Positions 7,442-59,955 of a stretch of 64,000 nucleotides of DNA are shown piece after piece. The first letter of the stretch is position 1; every line of letters starts with the position of its first letter. Below the pieces are notes generated by a model. It made no database searches, was not told the origin of the DNA, and was given only the letters and a program-made list of their open reading frames with translations. The stretch is from positions 816,091 to 880,090 of the forward strand of contig CATQHB010000002.1 in assembly GCA_958295765.1 (NCBI GenBank), read 5' to 3'. Origin of the DNA: an uncultured Dehalococcoidia bacterium (GTDB lineage: Bacteria; Chloroflexota; Dehalococcoidia; Lucifugimonadales; UBA3495). The position numbers and the translations under genes are program-made.

Positions 7442-7537
7442 ACTTTGTTCGGTGAGCGGATTCTATTCCTGACGCCGAATTTGCAATCGTCCTGGCTGTG
7501 GCCCGGCAACCGCAACATAAACCGGTCATTCCTGAAC

Positions 7538-7635
7538 CCGTCGTTCCGGCGAAAGCCGGAATCCAGGAAATCATCACGGAAAAGAATGAGCCGGCTACCG
7601 AGGGTTCTGGATTCCGGCTTTCACCGGAACGACGG
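7538..7635. repeat. Family-b palindromic element, copy 2
   Basis: Same arms as 2298..2395. Confidence 0.9.
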
Positions 7636-8139: not shown

Positions 8140-8241
8140 GCCGGACGCCGGAACACCGGCCCGGCCGGTTCCGGTTACGATTCCGGTTGCCGCGCTGCCT
8201 GCTCCGTTGTTCTCCAGTCGCTTTGCTTGCCGGTAGGAAAT

Positions 8242-10146
8242 ATGCCCCAGGCCCTGTTTGAACACCGCCTCCGGGTTACGCCGGAAAAACCGGGCGTCTA
8301 TTTGATGAAGGACGCCCGCAATGAAGTTTTGTACGTGGGCAAGGCCAGCGTCCTGCGGAACCGCCTGCGCTCCTACTTCGGTTCTCCCCACGGTCTGCCG
8401 CCCAAAATCCGCCGGATGGTGGCCCAGCTTGAGGACTTCGAGTTTATCGTTACCGATACCGAGGCGGAAGCCCTGATTCTGGAAAACACCCTCATCAAGC
8501 GCTACAAGCCCCACTTCAACGCCCGCCTCAAGGATGACAAGACCTACCCGTACCTGAAAATTGACCTGACCGAGGAGTTTCCCCGGGTTTACATCACCCG
8601 GCAGGTGGCCCAGGACGGCGCCCGTTACTTTGGCCCCTTTGCCACCGCCAGCAGCGTCCGCCAGACCATGGACTTAATCAAGAAACTCTTTCCCTACCGT
8701 TCCTGCACCAAGGTAATCACCGGGCGCGACCCCCGCCCTTGCCTGGAATACTATATCCACCGTTGCGTTGCCCCCTGCTCCGGCCTGGCAAGCAAAGAGG
8801 ATTACGCCCAGGTCATCCAGCAGGTCATAATGTTTATGGAGGGCAATACCGAGGCGGTTACCCGGGAGTTGCGGCAGAAGATGGCGCTGGCCGCGGAAGA
8901 ATTGGAGTTTGAGCGGGCCGCCGCCCTCCGGGACCAGATCCGGGGCATCGACCGGGTGGCCGAAGAGCAGCAGGTCAAGGTAGAGTCCAACCCCGGCGGC
9001 GATCAGGACCTGATTGCGCTGGCCCAGGGAACCAACGAAACCTGGGTAGAGGTGTTTTTCGTCCGGCGGGGCAAGCTGATTGGCCGCGACCACTTCTTTA
9101 TGGAAGGCACCCAGGACGACAGCGTGGAACTGGTAATGGGCCACTTTATCCGCCAGTTCTACCAGTCGGCCCTGGTCATCCCGCCGACCATCCTGCTCCA
9201 GCACCCGCCGGAAGACCGGGAGTTGATTCGGGGCTGGCTCAAGGAACGGCGCGGCGGGGCCGTCAAGCTGACCTGTCCCCAGCGGGGCCAGAACAAGAAA
9301 CTGCTGGACGTGGTGGCGGAAAACGCCGTCCAGGGTCTGGCCCAGCACCGGGTCAAGTGGCTGAACAACTCGGACGTTATCCAGCAGGCTATGACCGAAT
9401 TACAGGAGGAACTGAGCCTGCCGGCGCTGCCCCGGCGAATGGAATGTTACGACATTTCCCACGTGCAGGGAACCAACGTAGTGGGCAGTATGGTGGTGTT
9501 TCAGGATGGCCGCCCCAAGCCGGCCCACTACCGCCGGTTTCAGATAAAGTCGGTGGAGGGCGTGGACGACTACGCCAGTATGCAGGAGATGCTGCGCCGC
9601 CGTTTCAAGCGGCTGGCCGACGCCAGGGCCGAAGAACAGCAATTCCCGGTTCCCGGGGAGCCGGCGGAAGAGCCGCCGGCCGGGGATAAGCCGGGCGGCG
9701 GTTCCGGCGCAGCGTGGGGCATCGTCCCCGACCTGGTAATCATCGACGGCGGCAAGGGGCATCTGTCGGCGGCCCTGGAGGTGCTGCTGGAGTTGGGGCT
9801 GGACGATATTCCCCTGGCGGCGCTGGCTAAGGAAAACGAATGGCTGTTTCTGCCCCACACCTCGGAACCGATTGCCCTGCCCCGCAACTCTCAGGGCTTG
9901 TACCTGGTGCAGCGGATTCGGGATGAGGCCCACCGGTTCGCCATCACCTATCACCGCAACCTGCGCAGCAAGAGCAGCCTGCGTTCCTCCATTGACCTGG
10001 TTACCGGCATCGGCCCCAAGCGCAAGCGGATGCTGCTGCGCCGCTTTGGTTCCATTCAGGGCATCAAGGACGCCCCGGTGGATGAAATAGCGGCGGTGCC
10101 GGGCCTGACCCGCTCCCTGGCCCTGCGGCTGAAACAGACTTTGTAG
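8242..10146 (+). CDS. uvrC: Excinuclease ABC subunit C
   Basis: GIY-YIG N-terminus (GVYLMKDARNEVLYVGKA), UVR domain (FERAAALRDQIRGI), C-terminal (HhH)2. ATG at 8242 preferred over the TTG at 8227. Confidence 0.95.
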   Translation: MPQALFEHRLRVTPEKPGVYLMKDARNEVLYVGKASVLRNRLRSYFGSPHGLPPKIRRMVAQLEDFEFIVTDTEAEALILENTLIKRYKPHFNARLKDDKTYPYLKIDLTEEFPRVYITRQVAQDGARYFGPFATASSVRQTMDLIKKLFPYRSCTKVITGRDPRPCLEYYIHRCVAPCSGLASKEDYAQVIQQVIMFMEGNTEAVTRELRQKMALAAEELEFERAAALRDQIRGIDRVAEEQQVKVESNPGGDQDLIALAQGTNETWVEVFFVRRGKLIGRDHFFMEGTQDDSVELVMGHFIRQFYQSALVIPPTILLQHPPEDRELIRGWLKERRGGAVKLTCPQRGQNKKLLDVVAENAVQGLAQHRVKWLNNSDVIQQAMTELQEELSLPALPRRMECYDISHVQGTNVVGSMVVFQDGRPKPAHYRRFQIKSVEGVDDYASMQEMLRRRFKRLADARAEEQQFPVPGEPAEEPPAGDKPGGGSGAAWGIVPDLVIIDGGKGHLSAALEVLLELGLDDIPLAALAKENEWLFLPHTSEPIALPRNSQGLYLVQRIRDEAHRFAITYHRNLRSKSSLRSSIDLVTGIGPKRKRMLLRRFGSIQGIKDAPVDEIAAVPGLTRSLALRLKQTL

Positions 10147-32908: not shown

Positions 32909-33020
32909 GTCATTCCGAGCGGAGCGAGGAATCTAAACTCCGGCATAAGCGAGATTTCTGCCGGAACCGAAAGATGGTAAGGGCTTGGCATTTTGGATTC
33001 CTCCCTGCGGTTGGAATGAC
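32909..33020. repeat. Family-d palindromic element
   Basis: GTCATTCCGAGCGGAGCGAGGAATCTAAA ... TTTGGATTCCTCCCTGCGGTTGGAATGAC. Confidence 0.85.
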
Positions 33021-37012: not shown

Positions 37013-37106
37013 GTCATTCCGAGCAAAGCGAGGAATCTAAACTCCTGCATAAGTGAGATTTCCGCCGGAATAGGCATTTTAGATTCCTCCCTGCGGTCGG
37101 AATGAC
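37013..37106. repeat. Family-d palindromic element
   Basis: GTCATTCCGAGCAAAGCGAGGAATCTAAA ... TTTAGATTCCTCCCTGCGGTCGGAATGAC. A solo family-c TIR fragment lies at 36984-37007. Confidence 0.85.
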
Positions 37107-52157: not shown

Positions 52158-52253
52158 CCGCTCATCCTGAGCTTGTCGAAGGATAAACGGGTGGTTCGAC
52201 AGGCTCACCATGAGCGGTTGCATTGGGGTAAATACTCCGCTCACCATGAGCGG
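52158..52253. repeat. Cluster of family-a half-elements
   Basis: CCGCTCATCCTGAGCTTGTCGAAGGAT, GTGGTTCGACAGGCTCACCATGAGCGG and CCGCTCACCATGAGCGG. Confidence 0.85.
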
Positions 52254-53630: not shown

Positions 53631-53716
53631 CCGCTCATGGTGAGCCTGTCGAACCACGTTTGCGTATCCGGCGGTTCCGCTTACGGTGCGTCCTTCGACA
53701 GGCTCAGGATGAGCGG
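53631..53716. repeat. Family-a hairpin element (long spacer)
   Basis: CCGCTCATGGTGAGCCTGTCGAACCAC ... CCTTCGACAGGCTCAGGATGAGCGG. Confidence 0.85.
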
Positions 53717-53777: not shown

Positions 53778-54881
53778 TCACCCCAACAACTCCTTGCTCC
53801 GTTCTATGGCCGGCGTAGGCGACGGGTTGAGGCCCCGGAGCAGGGCCAGGTAGTAGCTGACGTAATCCCCCAGCAGAATCATATCCAGCAGTTGGGCCAG
53901 GGGTGGGCCGTCCGTCCCCGGCAGCAGCCGGTGGTTGACCGGCCCCCACCGGAGCATTTCGGTCAGCACCCGGTAGCGTTCCTTGAGTTCGTTGTCGGCG
54001 GCCATTGGCTCCAGTACCAGGGCCATCAAATCCGGGCCGGCCGGCGATGGTACGGCGTAGGGTTCCACCGAGTTATGGAGGGATTCGGGGAGGCTCTCAT
54101 AGAAGGCCCACGCCTTGGCGTTTTCGTTCAACTGGGTTTTCCAGCGGCGGGCCACGCCGGAAAAGATGCCGCCGCCGTACACCACCACCAGCTGGTCCAC
54201 CAACTCCCGGGCCAGCAGCTTGGCCGGGTTATCCGGGGTGGGCGTTGCCGCGCCGATGCCGGCCAGCCGCCGCTCCATAGCATCGACGGCGTCGGTCACG
54301 TCGGCGTCGGTCAAGCCGACCAGGCCCAGGCGGTTAAGGACGCCCAGCAGCAGGATGAGGTTGCAGCCGACGGCGCTGCGCGGCTCGCCGTTGACCGCCA
54401 CCGGCAGGACCGGGACGCGGCCGGCCTGGGCCGCCTCAGCCAGCGCGCCGCCGGCGGTAACGGCCAAAGTACGGGCGCCGGCAGCAACGGCCTGCCGGAA
54501 CAGGGACAGGGTTTCCGCCGTGTTGCCGGAGTAGCTGCAAGCGATGAACAGGCTGCGCGCGTCCAGGGCAAAGGGCAGGTGAAAGCTGCGCGCCACGATG
54601 ACCGGCACGGTGGGCCGGAGCGCGGCCAGGTCGGCCACCAGGTCGCCGGCGATGGCCGAGCCGCCCATCCCGCCGATAACTACCCGGTCATAGTCGCCGC
54701 CGGCCAACTCCGCCGGAAACGCGGCTTGAGCCTGCGCCCAGGCGGCCCGGCACTGCCCCGGCAGGGCGCGCAGCCGCTCCCCCAGCCCGGAGGGGTCAAA
54801 GGCGTCATAAACCTCCGGCCCGTCCAAGTCCGGCAACTCCAACCCCGGCGGTTTGACTTCCCTGTTGGTACTATTGGTCAT
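53778..54881 (-). CDS. Bifunctional phosphoglucose/phosphomannose isomerase (SIS domains)
   Basis: 367 aa. GMGGSAIAGD SIS motif and a typical C-terminus (LLGDYVSYYLA...GLNPSPTPAIE). Confidence 0.85.
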   Translation of the reverse strand: MTNSTNREVKPPGLELPDLDGPEVYDAFDPSGLGERLRALPGQCRAAWAQAQAAFPAELAGGDYDRVVIGGMGGSAIAGDLVADLAALRPTVPVIVARSFHLPFALDARSLFIACSYSGNTAETLSLFRQAVAAGARTLAVTAGGALAEAAQAGRVPVLPVAVNGEPRSAVGCNLILLLGVLNRLGLVGLTDADVTDAVDAMERRLAGIGAATPTPDNPAKLLARELVDQLVVVYGGGIFSGVARRWKTQLNENAKAWAFYESLPESLHNSVEPYAVPSPAGPDLMALVLEPMAADNELKERYRVLTEMLRWGPVNHRLLPGTDGPPLAQLLDMILLGDYVSYYLALLRGLNPSPTPAIERSKELLG

Positions 54882-54919
54882 AAAAATGAATAACGTCTCC
54901 TGAATAGCCGGCCTATCCC

Positions 54920-54946
54920 CCGCTCATCCTGAGCTTGTCGAAGGAC
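54920..54946. repeat. Family-a half-element
   Basis: CCGCTCATCCTGAGCTTGTCGAAGGAC. Confidence 0.8.
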
Positions 54947-54957
54947 ACCCCCACAAG

Positions 54958-55308
54958 TCAAGGCAACTCCAACAACCCCCGCCGGTCATCCTGATGCAGG
55001 GCAACTATGTCGGCGTAATGCTCCCGCAAGAGAGACCCTACCGCTTGCCAGGGGCAGTTGCCCAGGCGAATCAGCACAACTTTGGGCGGATAGCCCCGGG
55101 CGTGGCTCAAGTCCCGATAGTCTTTATCCTTGGTTGCGATGATTAAGTTTTGGTCTTTGGCATAATCCCAAATCGGGTTGTCGCTGCCGGCGTCCAGGTC
55201 GATTTCCTGTACGTGAATCGACCCCGGGTAAAGGTCGGCCAACTGCCGCAACAGACGGGGCGACAGGTTCTGATTAAATAACAGCGTAACGGAGTTTGCT
55301 GTAGTCAT
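54958..55308 (-). CDS. DUF5615-family protein (PIN-like/Mut7-C-type predicted toxin nuclease)
   Basis: 116 aa from the ATG at 55308. Pattern LLFNQNLSPRL...YPGSIHV...DNPIWDYA...LIIATKDKDY...PPKVVLIRLGNC matches the DUF5615 consensus as I remember it. Overlaps the upstream ORF by 35 nt. Confidence 0.75.
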   Translation of the reverse strand: MTTANSVTLLFNQNLSPRLLRQLADLYPGSIHVQEIDLDAGSDNPIWDYAKDQNLIIATKDKDYRDLSHARGYPPKVVLIRLGNCPWQAVGSLLREHYADIVALHQDDRRGLLELP

Positions 55309-58300
55309 CGTCCATCTTTTCCGCCGCCGCAAAGGAGAGGCAGACGTACAGGTCGGCCTCGGTTAAATTGTCAAAGCCCTCCAGCAGGCCGGCCCAGGTA
55401 TCGCCCCCGGCCAGGTACTCCATCACGTCCTGGACCGTCATTCGGATGCCGCGGATGCAGGGTTTGCCGAAACGCTTGTCCGCCTCGATGGTGATGGTGC
55501 CTCGGTAGTCCACCCCCTGGCCCAGCAGGGCTGCTACCGCCGCCTCGACTTCCTTGCCCTCCGGCGCTGACCGCAGCCAGGCCCGCAACTCCCGCCGGGC
55601 GATGGCTACGGTGAACTTGTCGCCCCGTTCCTTGCGCACCTCCGCCAGCTTTTGCGCCGCCCCCAACGCCGCCCTTTCCCCGGCTTTGGCAATGACCACG
55701 TGCAACTTCTGCTTTGGGTCAAACTCCGGTATCGCCAGCCGCCACAGGTGCTTTTGCAAGTCCCGCGCCCCGAATTGGCCTTTCGTCATTAGAGGTTGCA
55801 CCGCTTGGTATAGCGCATTGCTGTTGATGATTGCCAGGAGGTAGTTTGCTTCATCCGTGTCCTTGCAGGTAATCCAAAATAGCTTGTAATCAACGACAGA
55901 ATCGTTTTCCTCAAGCCGGGCGGCGGTAGGCTCGCCGGCACTGGTATATACTACCCGAACCGGGCGGTTGCCCGATTTCTCTTGCCTAGACAGTTGAGAC
56001 GAAAGTTCACGGTTGTAATCCAACCGCTCCAAAAGGCTCAACTTGTTGGCCGGCGCTTTATTGTCCTCCCATAACTGGCTGACGGTTTGCCAGCGTTGCC
56101 GCATCCGTTGTTCCAGCCCGCCCAAGCGGATACCGCCAACGCCGCTATCATCGGTAGGTATGGCGTGGTCGCCCTGCTTCAACGGCAGCAAGGCTTTCAG
56201 CGGTTCCAGGGTAACGTAGGGCGCAATCGTTTCCCCCAAATGCACGTCAAAGAGGTGGGTTTTCTCAATAGTCTGGTTGCTGAGGGCGGTCAAGTCCAGG
56301 TCTTTCCAGGGCGCTTTGTCCAGGGAACCCCGCCGGGGATTTACGGTAATGGTCTGGCCGGCCTGAATAATGGCCGGGTTTTCCGTTTCGTTGACAAAAA
56401 ACAGGCAGCGGGGAACGATGGACGATCCTTGCCGGGAATAACCGTCGTAAGGTGAAACACTGAGGTCTCTGGTGTCGATAATTGCTCCGGTGTCGGTAAT
56501 GGCGACGGATTCCCGTTGCACCTCAGGCGAACCGGCTTTACCCAACCACTGTTGCACCGAACCGGCCAGGGCTTTGCCCGGTGTATCCGGTTGACATTTG
56601 CGGGCAAAGGCTACCGATGACGCTACGGGAAAGAAAGTGTTAGGCTCCAGTTTCTCTAAGTCCCAAGCTGACTGGAGGGTAAAGTCCACGTGGACGCTTT
56701 GGCCGGAATTGCCGGCCCGCCATTGACCGGTGCGCCACTTGGTATATTGCCCGGTCTGCAACGCGCTGTGAGGCATTACAAAGCCGATGACGCCATTGTC
56801 CTTGAGGTACAGGTCAACGCTGCGGGCAAAGAAAAGTCCGGCCACGTCCTGGTGGGTGGTGTAGCGTCCCCCGGCCCAAATGTCGTAGCGGTGGCGGCTC
56901 AAGTTCTCCAGTTCAACCCGCAGTACGTCTTTAGTATTGCGGTAATTCAGCCAGGGCGGGTTGCCGATAACTACGTCCACTTTATCCCGGGACAATACCA
57001 CCGGGCGCACCATATTGCGGGTGTAGTAGGCCCAGACGTGGTCCCGGCCGGCCTGGTGCAATCGCTGCAAAGCGGAAATAGTTTTCTGAATGGTCTGCCG
57101 CTCCGCCGGGTCGGTCAAGGAGTAATCATCCAGGACAAAGCTGGGGTCGTCGCCCTGCTCAATAGCCTCAGCCACCTGGCTCAGCATTGAGTCAAAGTTT
57201 TCGGCCCGGTTGACCAGGCTGACCGGAAAGGCCAACTCGGTATTATCGTCATCATCCACCGGGATAGTTACGTTCTGCTGGGTGAACATATCCCCGGTGC
57301 GAAAGCGGAGTTGGAGAGAGTCGCCCAGATATACCGGGATTGACAGGGAATCGTAAAACCCGGCTTCGCTGGCGGCTTGAATCGCGGGGCGGGCGGCCAG
57401 AGTCCAGGAGGCCCGGGCCAGGTGAACCGCTACCGGGTGAATGTCAATACCGGTTACGTTTTCCCGCAGTTTGTTGAGGATTTCCCGGGGATGCAGTTTC
57501 GGCTTTTTCCCGGCGGGCAGGGCCGCCTGGATAAAGTGGGCTACGCCCTCGGCGATAAAGGCGCCGGAACCGCAGGACGGGTCCAGCACCCGTTGGTTCA
57601 GCGGGTCGGTAACCAGTTCCTGTACCATCGTCCGGGCCAGCCAGGCCGGGGTGTAGTATTCGCCCAACTGCCGCCGCTCCTCGGGCGGAATGACGCTCTG
57701 ATAGAGGATAGCGCCGATGTCGGCCGGGGCTTCCCGCCAGTTGAACTTGGCGACCCGGCGGGCCAGGGTTTGCAGCAGGGGCCGGCCGCCCACTTCGGCC
57801 GGCCAGGTGAAAAAGTCCGACTCCACAATTCCGTGCAGGCCGGTGTCATTGCGGAAACGGCGTCCGTAGAGTAAATCCTCCGGTTCACTAGCCGCCAATG
57901 TTCGCAGGTCAATGCCAAAGGATGCCTGCACCACCATACCGATAACGGCGCTGAGGTAGGTATGGCGGATGAACAGGTCGTCCATTTGCTCCGGGCTGTG
58001 GGCGATTTCCCCCAGGGCGGTGCGCAACAGGTCGTGCCAAAGCCGCCGCTTGACCTTAACCGTTTCGTAGGCTTCCGCCTGCCGGTACAGGGTGGTCAGG
58101 GCGCCTACATCCCGCTGGTAGTTGGGGCTGTTGGGGCCAAAGTGTTTAGCGATGCTGTCCCGGTCCGAGGGCAGGTTTTCCCTGGCTTCCAGGGCATTGT
58201 CCCGCAGCCATTCGTACAGGGGGAACCAACGGTCGGGAGTGTCCAGGGTAAAAGCGTAGGGCGGGGCTGCGTTGATCGGGCCGGCGCCGGGCCAGCGCAG

Positions 58301-58672
58301 CAGCCAATACTTGCCGTCGGTGAGGAGGCCCATGCGCACCCGGCCCTGTCTTTCCGATTGGGCCAGGTAATCATCCAGTTGGGCTACGTACTCCGGGTTG
58401 GGTCTGAAACCGCTGTCCGTTCCGATGCGGCGCTTCATTTCGATGAAAGTATCCAGGGCGGTCAGGTCAACGGCCCGGCGGGAGGCATCGGCCGGCGGGT
58501 TTTCCTCAACCATCTCCTCACTTTTGACCAGCCCGGTCGCAATCAGGAAGTCGCGGACGGCGGTAGTGATGTTGGCCTCGGCCTCAAAGTTGTCGTGCCG
58601 CCGCAGGATCGCGGCGGCGGCAGCGGGATATTTGGGGTCGTCATAGTCGATATGTTCTCGGGTAGTCATCAA
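55274..58672 (-). CDS. Single-chain type IIG/IIL (MmeI-like) restriction-modification enzyme with a C-terminal DUF433 domain fusion
   Basis: 1132 aa. N-terminal D69-x8-E78-M-K80 (VDLTALDTFIEMK). MTase motifs GEYYTPAWLA, VLDPSCGSGAF and VIGNPPW. Long TRD-like region. The last 79 aa or so (55277..55513), ITIEADKRFGKPCIRGIRMTVQDVMEYLAGG...LTEADLYVCLSFAA, match DUF433. Confidence 0.75.
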   Translation of the reverse strand: MMTTREHIDYDDPKYPAAAAAILRRHDNFEAEANITTAVRDFLIATGLVKSEEMVEENPPADASRRAVDLTALDTFIEMKRRIGTDSGFRPNPEYVAQLDDYLAQSERQGRVRMGLLTDGKYWLLRWPGAGPINAAPPYAFTLDTPDRWFPLYEWLRDNALEARENLPSDRDSIAKHFGPNSPNYQRDVGALTTLYRQAEAYETVKVKRRLWHDLLRTALGEIAHSPEQMDDLFIRHTYLSAVIGMVVQASFGIDLRTLAASEPEDLLYGRRFRNDTGLHGIVESDFFTWPAEVGGRPLLQTLARRVAKFNWREAPADIGAILYQSVIPPEERRQLGEYYTPAWLARTMVQELVTDPLNQRVLDPSCGSGAFIAEGVAHFIQAALPAGKKPKLHPREILNKLRENVTGIDIHPVAVHLARASWTLAARPAIQAASEAGFYDSLSIPVYLGDSLQLRFRTGDMFTQQNVTIPVDDDDNTELAFPVSLVNRAENFDSMLSQVAEAIEQGDDPSFVLDDYSLTDPAERQTIQKTISALQRLHQAGRDHVWAYYTRNMVRPVVLSRDKVDVVIGNPPWLNYRNTKDVLRVELENLSRHRYDIWAGGRYTTHQDVAGLFFARSVDLYLKDNGVIGFVMPHSALQTGQYTKWRTGQWRAGNSGQSVHVDFTLQSAWDLEKLEPNTFFPVASSVAFARKCQPDTPGKALAGSVQQWLGKAGSPEVQRESVAITDTGAIIDTRDLSVSPYDGYSRQGSSIVPRCLFFVNETENPAIIQAGQTITVNPRRGSLDKAPWKDLDLTALSNQTIEKTHLFDVHLGETIAPYVTLEPLKALLPLKQGDHAIPTDDSGVGGIRLGGLEQRMRQRWQTVSQLWEDNKAPANKLSLLERLDYNRELSSQLSRQEKSGNRPVRVVYTSAGEPTAARLEENDSVVDYKLFWITCKDTDEANYLLAIINSNALYQAVQPLMTKGQFGARDLQKHLWRLAIPEFDPKQKLHVVIAKAGERAALGAAQKLAEVRKERGDKFTVAIARRELRAWLRSAPEGKEVEAAVAALLGQGVDYRGTITIEADKRFGKPCIRGIRMTVQDVMEYLAGGDTWAGLLEGFDNLTEADLYVCLSFAAAEKMDDDYSKLRYAVI

Positions 58673-58708
58673 AACTCTCTTTGCCGTAGCGGTATCGGTT
58701 GCCCCGCC

Positions 58709-58717
58709 AGTATAACA
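58709..58717 (-). promoter_or_regulatory. Extended -10-like motif (TGTTATACT) upstream of the R-M gene
   Basis: Reverse complement of AGTATAACA, about 37 nt upstream of the ATG at 58672. No good -35. Confidence 0.25.
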
Positions 58718-59813: not shown

Positions 59814-59955
59814 CCGCTCATGGTGAGCCTGTCGAACCATCCCCCCGTCCTTCGACAGGCTCAGGATGAGCGGAGTATTTAGCCCATATAACCCTCATGG
59901 TGAGCCTGTCGAACCATCCCACCCCCATATCCTTCGACAGGCTCAGGATGAGCGG
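59814..59955. repeat. Two tandem complete family-a elements
   Basis: Elements at 59814-59873 and 59892-59955, each CCGCTCATGGTGAGCCTGTCGAACCAT...CCTTCGACAGGCTCAGGATGAGCGG. Confidence 0.9.

Follow-up and report, generated by a model that had tools for sequence, protein, structure and literature searches.

A single-chain restriction–modification enzyme that ends in a DUF433 antitoxin domain and overlaps a DUF5615 toxin gene in a Dehalococcoidia chromosome

Restriction–modification (R-M) and toxin–antitoxin (TA) systems are the two commonest 'selfish defence' modules of bacteria and often lie side by side. In the 64,000-nucleotide (nt) stretch of an uncultured Dehalococcoidia bacterium analysed here (assembly GCA_958295765.1, contig CATQHB010000002.1, positions 816,091 to 880,090; hereafter the window), the two are predicted to be joined within one polypeptide: a two-gene unit on the minus strand at 54958-58672, in a Chloroflexota, Dehalococcoidia-like chromosome, comprises an R-M enzyme with a DUF433 tail and, overlapping its end, a DUF5615 toxin gene. 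Sequence comparison indicates that this architecture is real and conserved and that it combines two known kinds of system; the function that we infer for it is that the toxin would be neutralised by the tail of the intact R-M enzyme, in an addiction or guard role, a reading to which we assign a probability of about 0.5. A first inspection, made from the DNA letters and their open reading frames (ORFs) and referred to below as the sequence-only reading, had described a compact unit of a single-chain R-M enzyme, a genuine DUF433 tail and a cognate DUF5615 gene, and Pfam searches, an alignment of 71 sequences and fold matches all bear this description out.

The first gene is an uninterrupted frame of 1132 amino acids (aa) at 55274..58672 (minus strand); its listed start is TTG 58672, and the next option is an ATG at 58669. 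From its sequence, it is predicted to encode a single-chain type IIG/IIL R-M enzyme, uniting nuclease, methylase and presumed recognition region, with a C-terminal DUF433 antitoxin. The N-terminal PD-(D/E)xK nuclease domain covers approximately aa 1-160 (58193..58672, minus strand) and contains the catalytic D69...E78-x-K80 (58433-58468, minus strand). The gamma-class N6-adenine DNA methyltransferase domain covers approximately aa 330-650 (56723..57685, minus strand), carries the motifs GEYYTP, DPSCGSG and NPPW, and is matched over aa 331-646 by the Pfam models Eco57I (E=9e-13) and N6_Mtase (E=3e-10), both above their cut-offs. The D69-x8-E78-x-K80 triad and the gamma-class methylase motifs had been picked out from the letters, and D69, E78, K80, GEYYTP, DPxCGSG and NPPW prove to be invariant in the alignment of 71 relatives; the PADLOC model REase_MTase_IIG matches as well (E=6e-64). 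In an AlphaFold2 model built on 71 sequences (mean predicted local distance difference test score, pLDDT, 69; good over aa 10-730, poor over aa 747-887 and the tail), the nuclease domain adopts an alpha-beta-beta-beta-alpha-beta core that places D69 and E78/K80 on neighbouring strands. The best Foldseek match of this model in the PDB is DrdV (7lo5, E=6e-13, aligned across ~1170 columns), with further matches to BrxX/PglX, BpuSI (3s1s), LlaBIII/LlaGI and MmeI (5hr4, E=2e-7); DrdV and BpuSI, both matched over the full length, are nuclease-bearing. The presumed target-recognition domain, of ~400 aa (55514..56722, minus strand), ends at the enzyme family's natural C-terminus (...AALLGQG); the structural alignment to DrdV spans this C-terminal region, in which the model is poor at aa 747-887 and no Pfam match was found.

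Membership of the MmeI family, as entertained in the sequence-only reading, does not hold at the level of sequence. The Pfam models MmeI_Mtase (22.4 bits) and MmeI_N (12.3 bits, E=0.21) both stay below their gathering score of 27, and the remaining MmeI models (MmeI_hel, MmeI_TRD and MmeI_C) have no match. The enzyme is therefore filed as an Eco57I/BseRI-type single-chain IIG/IIL enzyme, and its resemblance to MmeI is, as far as the model indicates, purely structural. As in DrdV, MmeI, BpuSI, BseRI and Eco57I, one chain combines a PD-(D/E)xK nuclease at the N-terminus, a gamma-class N6-adenine methylase and, presumably, a recognition region, with no separate methylase gene, but these known enzymes have neither an antitoxin domain nor an overlapping toxin gene. 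Plasmid homologs, ~33% identical and annotated as N-6 DNA methylase or BseRI, end at ~aa 1050 and have no tail; no relatives were found on viral contigs. The enzyme family is unusually conserved along its whole length, presumed recognition region included, and several Dehalococcoidia genomes carry two enzyme paralogs with ~64-68% identity to the query (L005-L043), for example OZ252215.1 (L008, L015) and CBDFKP01 (L006, L012).

Directly after the natural C-terminus, with no linker to the enzyme, stands a complete DUF433/COG2442 (VapB-type) antitoxin of aa 1054-1132 (55277..55513, minus strand). The terminal ~79 aa had been ascribed to DUF433 by inspection, an assignment now secured both by a full-length match to the Pfam profile PF04255 (positions 1-56 of 56 over aa 1060-1115, E=1e-17, 64 bits against a cut-off of 23.6) and by fold: the AlphaFold2 model of the tail matches the DUF433 crystal structure 2GA1 with template modelling (TM) scores of 0.70-0.73, and the antitoxin Rv2018 (5AF3) also matches. 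A sequence search of the tail against PDB chains, as opposed to this fold comparison, yielded nothing useful. The tail is 57-67% identical to stand-alone DUF433 antitoxins of 74 aa and collinear with them from the first residue to the last, yet it is no small free protein of ~70-100 aa, being part of the 1132-aa ORF. Its first codon, the GTG of Val1054 (55511..55513, minus strand), is the presumed ancestral antitoxin start and a possible internal start; it is GTG in 8/8 related DNAs and aligns with the initiator Met or Val of stand-alone DUF433 proteins. Because of this alignment, the enzyme's natural C-terminus is seen to abut the old antitoxin start codon without a linker, and the comparison indicates that the fusion originated at the antitoxin's own start codon. 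At its other extremity, the C-terminal end of the tail (…EKMDDDYSKLRYAVI) has been rewritten through the overlap with the toxin gene.

The second gene, for a DUF5615/COG4634 (Mut7-C-like PIN) protein of 116 aa, runs from ATG 55308 to a stop at 54958-54960 (54958..55308, minus strand) and begins 35 nt inside the fused ORF, a start and an overlap on which the sequence-only reading and the present analysis agree; an alternative start at TTG 55332 would give 124 aa. That this small ORF fits DUF5615 was likewise anticipated, and the Pfam profile PF18480 matches it over positions 3-108 of 110 with E=1.7e-30 and 105.5 bits against a cut-off of 23.8. Toxin homologs numbered 3095; a sequence search against PDB chains gave nothing useful. 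The product is predicted to be the cognate PIN-like, RNase-type toxin, COG4634 being a member of the Mut7-C group of PIN-like nucleases (Matelska 2017, PMC5499597). PIN-COG2442 pairs have been predicted to be TA systems and are abundant in cyanobacteria and Chloroflexi (Makarova 2009, PMC2701414), and in a control scan of metagenomes of the Joint Genome Institute (JGI), in which DUF433 lay in short ORFs, DUF5615 was found directly downstream of stand-alone DUF433 in 61/80 loci; that scan returned stand-alone DUF433 genes only and no fusions. Two such pairs have been confirmed by experiment: VapBC10 of Synechocystis, in which the toxin is neutralised through complex formation and the antitoxin is degraded by ClpXP (PMC3834315), and Rv2018/Rv2019 (VapBC45) of M. 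tuberculosis, whose toxin is an RNase (PMC5175181). Both have the same antitoxin domain as the window unit, with a Mut7-C-group PIN-like toxin directly after it, in the order antitoxin then toxin. They differ in that their antitoxin is free, or fused only to a winged-helix domain, and autoregulates its promoter, whereas in the window unit it forms the end of an enzyme of 1050 aa; Rv2019, moreover, belongs to the sister family PIN_10, and the window toxin to DUF5615.

A joined frame of this kind might arise as an assembly artefact, through a missed stop or a frameshift that fuses two genes, and frameshifted copies do occur on related long-read contigs (L044, L045 and L130). Against this explanation stands the recurrence of the same open frame. 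When the 120 best database clusters of enzyme relatives (90% identity) were examined for the tail, a C-terminal PF04255 was present in 22 other clusters (66-93% identity, ~79 member sequences) with lengths of 1116-1151 aa, and most of the remaining clusters were unfused, 1019-1073 aa long and ending in ...LLAG or ...LLGQG; NCBI lists one of the fused proteins simply under the name 'DUF433 domain-containing protein [Chloroflexi bacterium]'. Further enzyme-DUF433 fusions followed by DUF5615, which the sequence-only reading had thought worth seeking, do exist: an intact fused enzyme with the same overlapping DUF5615 gene occurs at the loci L001, L127, L128/L129 and L131, and L045 has the same overlapping toxin gene next to an enzyme gene called in three fragments. 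The fused loci were sampled and assembled in different ways: L128 stems from a scaffolded metagenome assembly and L129 from a public sequencing run assembled by Logan, and another lies on a circular contig of 3.4 Mb that, judging by its name, is a HiFi (hifiasm) assembly. The ratio of nonsynonymous to synonymous substitution rates (dN/dS) is 0.04-0.30 for the tail, at a dS of ~0.6 to >1 (near-saturated), and 0.1-0.3 for the toxin, and codon-level purifying selection extends across the junction region. The recurring open frame and this selection effectively refute the artefact, whose likelihood we regard as negligible; the fusion is genuine, of long standing and maintained by purifying selection.

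The unit occupies at least three slots in chromosomes, one between dxr and rseP (L127, L128, L045 and L004), one beside an MFS transporter gene (L001 and L131) and one flanked by genes for an SDR and for phosphoglucose isomerase (the window and L126). Among GTDB representative genomes, a scan yielded 39 loci, every one an unfused Dehalococcoidia/Chloroflexota copy, and the unfused enzyme relatives have no DUF5615 or other TA gene nearby. In a neighbour-joining tree of the enzyme core, fused, unfused and third-type proteins are intermixed. An old gain of the tail with later losses is suggested, and the tree, being midpoint-rooted and free of support values, cannot separate one gain plus several losses from several gains. 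Two apparent additions to this picture were discarded: a 434-aa DUF433 frame in L122 is a mere open frame in GC-rich DNA, in which the real ORF has 169 aa, and the short proteins closest to the tail (P0121-P0126), considered as free antitoxins, are fragments of frameshifted enzyme genes.

DUF433 is not the only tail found at this junction. Three sister enzymes (P0009, P0011 and P0017; 72-73% identity in the A2 alignment) carry at the same position a different, acidic tail of ~60 aa (...RRNPIYLDPDIDINDLIDEMYE...; also containing ...NPIYLDPDIDINDLIDEMYE...), and at the one such locus that was fetched (L003, 5001-8734, encoding P0009) the start of a classical PIN gene (PF01850, 134 aa) abuts the enzyme stop. 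L003 lies in an MFS-amidohydrolase slot, in which P0013 is unfused. At a further locus (L130, 3004-5716), the same second tail and PIN gene stand on the natural C-terminus of an unrelated methylase of HSDR_N/MTase_I type (PADLOC PDLC03034, matched over profile positions 93-670 of 672; its N-terminus resembles an HSDR_N_2 nuclease), for which no similarity to the window enzyme was detectable; L130 is frameshifted in places, and the methylase end and the tail share one open frame. Because no Pfam model matches the second tail (NPIYLDPD...) and the databases hold a single relative of it, its antitoxin nature is read from its position and the adjacent PIN gene alone. Its recurrence on two enzyme families is the best indirect sign that selection favours tying the antidote of a toxin to an R-M protein, and together with purifying selection it lends indirect support, both as a second tail at the same junction and as a tail on an unrelated methylase, to a functional link between enzyme and toxin. 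A broader proposal is that R-M enzymes act as antitoxins, the tail and PIN-toxin cassettes on unrelated R-M proteins (DUF433 with DUF5615; an unclassified acidic tail with a VapC-type PIN) forming a distinct class of composite defence in which a tethered RNase toxin would police whether the R-M protein is present and intact. Such cassettes would serve as an interlock, making single-chain R-M genes addictive and aborting infection if the enzyme is destroyed or not made. We put this forward tentatively, as possible rather than probable.

How might the window unit work? On the preferred reading, the toxin would be bound and silenced by the enzyme's tail, so that neutralisation would require that the full-length R-M protein stays intact and goes on being made. 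In a single-chain enzyme, nuclease and methylase are lost at once, and such an enzyme therefore should not, alone, kill cells that lose its gene; the appended TA pair would thus give a single-chain R-M gene an addiction or stabilisation device. Classical post-segregational killing by type II R-M systems (Kobayashi; Mruk and Kobayashi 2014) has the same outcome, stabilisation in that gene loss kills the cell, but it needs a separate, longer-lived nuclease and a methylase that becomes diluted, which a single-chain enzyme does not have; here a bona fide TA pair would supply the killing instead. Since single-chain enzymes lack classical post-segregational killing, we rank addiction or stabilisation first, a phage-triggered guard as a close second, and a functionless fusion of a hitch-hiking cassette third.

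As a guard or abortive-infection backup, the main idea of the sequence-only reading, the unit would respond to an infection that shuts off or destroys the enzyme: a phage that inhibits or degrades the R-M enzyme or stops its synthesis would release the enzyme-bound toxin and so abort its own infection, as with PrrC and EcoprrI. The anatomy is the same as for the addiction reading, toxin-carrying tails recur on two unrelated R-M proteins, guardians of R-M systems are known (PrrC and PARIS; reviewed in PMC12707154), and the DUF433 antitoxin is protease-labile in Synechocystis. PrrC-EcoprrI and PARIS likewise tie a latent toxic nuclease genetically to an R-M enzyme (PrrC also physically; in the window it is the genetic linkage that is seen), with the idea that lost R-M function unleashes the toxin. 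PrrC, however, is an anticodon nuclease with an ABC-ATPase, which a type I complex binds without a covalent link and the T4 Stp peptide triggers, whereas in the window a type II antitoxin covalently fused to a type IIG enzyme would do the holding and the toxin is PIN-like. Other antitoxins also form part of a larger polypeptide or reading frame and lack a separate gene product, as in CapRel-SJ46, EzeT and Rpn/RpnS, but these are fused to or nested in their own toxin, while here the antitoxin sits on a third-party defence enzyme and the toxin is separate. A guard sits less well with several facts: known anti-restriction proteins mostly bind R-M enzymes and do not degrade them, it is not obvious how a covalently attached antitoxin would let the toxin go, several lineages have lost or altered the toxin, the locus lies among housekeeping genes and not in a defence island, and the junction GTG permits an internally initiated free antitoxin. 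We consider a phage-triggered guard, taken by itself, rather unlikely.

Several observations weigh against neutralisation by the enzyme's tail more generally. First, translation of the toxin may be coupled to that of the enzyme ORF, given the 35-nt overlap and no clear ribosome-binding site; if it is, nonsense mutations upstream would remove both proteins and there would be no addiction. Second, the tail has a pLDDT of only 30-50 in the full-length AlphaFold2 model, and for this reason no docking of the tail onto the enzyme body can be claimed. Third, the junction GTG could start a free antitoxin internally, which would uncouple the toxin from the enzyme. Fourth, the module decays in some lineages: L004 has lost it whole, its enzyme ending in ...GRGVD followed by TAG (TAC in the fused forms), with nothing recognisable of antitoxin or toxin past the TAG in 8147-8900, between dxr and rseP; in the closest relative, L126 (enzyme 93% identical, same neighbours), the toxin is cut after ~24 codons and the tail is kept; and in L044 the toxin is a stub only. 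Going by its sequence, the L004 remnant is certain, and it is the sole proven loss. Fifth, the window toxin has Asn at residue 12, where 127/131 family representatives and 61/63 stand-alone metagenomic copies have Asp.

Much of this would also be expected if a selfish DUF433-DUF5615 cassette had inserted behind the R-M gene and the intervening stop had then been lost, leaving a fusion without function, from which a free antitoxin could still be made at the GTG. The junction lies exactly at the old start codon, GTG in all eight DNAs, the toxin has been lost repeatedly and the whole module once, Chloroflexi are rich in DUF433-PIN pairs (PMC2701414), and Rpn/RpnS provides a precedent for an intragenic antitoxin (cited in PMC12707154). 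A second, ordinary DUF433-DUF5615 pair also follows closely behind the fused unit, in tandem with it, in L044 (7382-8322) and L045 (7191-8008). A hitch-hiking cassette does not readily explain, however, why the fused frame stayed open across lineages with near-saturated synonymous divergence, and a second tail and PIN at the same junction and on another methylase family are hard to credit to chance; the sequence just upstream of the junction GTG, moreover, offers a poor, badly spaced ribosome-binding site. We regard this explanation as rather unlikely. As a separate observation, the DUF433 protein of the tandem second pair in L044 and L045 bears an N-terminal extension of 100-130 aa.

Residue 12 deserves closer attention. 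Of the conserved acidic residues of the family, the window toxin keeps D43, D61 and D63, and the fourth is absent, position 12 being Asn; among enzyme-linked toxins, this position is Asn in the window, L126, L131 and P0208, Asp in L001, L045, L127 and L044, and Glu in L128. The residue varies together with the enzyme's stop codon, TAA pairing with Asn12 (window, L126 and L131) and TGA with Asp or Glu (L127, L001, L045, L044 and L128/L129). Because the enzyme stop overlaps toxin codon 12 (TAA at 55274-55276 and AAT at 55273-55275, together 55273..55276, minus strand), a single G/A transition changes both the stop (TGA/TAA) and the residue (Asp/Asn). The window toxin may be attenuated through this Asp-to-Asn change. 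In the related Rv2019 toxin, E41K and D98K abolished toxicity and D4K stayed toxic (PMC5175181), and as D4K is the equivalent change, the effect of Asn12 is uncertain. The idea that the toxin is dead was dropped: Asn variants are under purifying selection (window versus L131, 73% identity, dN/dS 0.23), Rv2019 D4K is toxic, and the change is tied to the switch from TGA to TAA.

Selection on the Asn12 toxins would also fit a role without full catalysis, and hence an account in which tail and small protein are working parts of the enzyme, DUF433 as an added domain for DNA binding or autoregulation and the PIN-like protein as a subunit that is either a recruited accessory nuclease or non-catalytic. 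In favour of it, DUF433 is a helical bundle that binds DNA, and the promoter of VapB10 is bound by VapB10 itself. Most enzyme relatives work, however, without tail or small protein, the nearest relative has deleted the toxin and kept the enzyme intact, and the tail and the toxin are both typical of protein families that pair up as TA systems. We hold this account to be improbable. Neutralisation of the toxin by the enzyme's tail remains the best explanation.

The surroundings of the unit can be described briefly. An extended -10-like motif, TGTTATACT, was read directly at 58709..58717 (minus strand), 37 nt upstream of the start codon, and is a candidate promoter of the two-gene unit. The sequence-only reading had taken it to indicate a separate transcription unit: the motif is present at that position, but a generic sigma-70 consensus scan there showed no full -35/-10 pair, and a generic promoter and terminator scan of the locus was uninformative. 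The neighbouring genes in the window are housekeeping genes; they include no separate modification (M) or specificity (S) gene and form no defence island. The G+C content of the toxin, the tail and part of the recognition region (window 54800-57200) is 0.56-0.61, against 0.62-0.74 in the flanks, which hints at a foreign origin. An intergenic repeat resembling repetitive extragenic palindromic (REP) elements (TTCGACAAGCTCAGGATGAG, variant CACCATGAG) occurs in 20 copies against 0 expected, often as inverted pairs; one copy lies at 54923-54942, right after the toxin stop, and the 19 other sites include 52161-52214, 53634-53713 and 59817-59952. This repeat yields spurious 'LRQAQDER / FDKLRMSG' ORFs. 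In L126, the place of the deleted toxin gene (7501-7614) is taken by a hairpin element whose 30-nt inverted arms (TGTCATTCCGACCGGAGGGAGGAATCTAAA) are perfect. Related copies lie in the window at 32911-33018 and 37081-37104, so that the hairpin probably represents a small element of mobile or repeat type.

Finally, no account of an R-M enzyme with a fused antitoxin turned up in searches of the literature, in agreement with the sequence-only reading, which knew of no such R-M/DUF433 fusion. A survey of PIN-like nucleases noted that no direct interaction between TA and R-M systems had been shown and saw no PIN-like nucleases beside type II R-M systems (Matelska 2017, PMC5499597). The direct molecular link noted there as missing is here covalent and conserved, and it appears to have arisen with at least two different tails, on two enzyme families. 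A simple search rule for related systems follows from the architecture, namely an antitoxin domain that ends a large defence protein, with an orphan toxin gene next in line. Provided that the enzyme's tail does hold the toxin, the unit would be a simple, genetically tractable case in which a suicide module guards a defence enzyme, and it would explain how single-chain R-M genes, unable to kill the cells that lose them, may still stabilise themselves.

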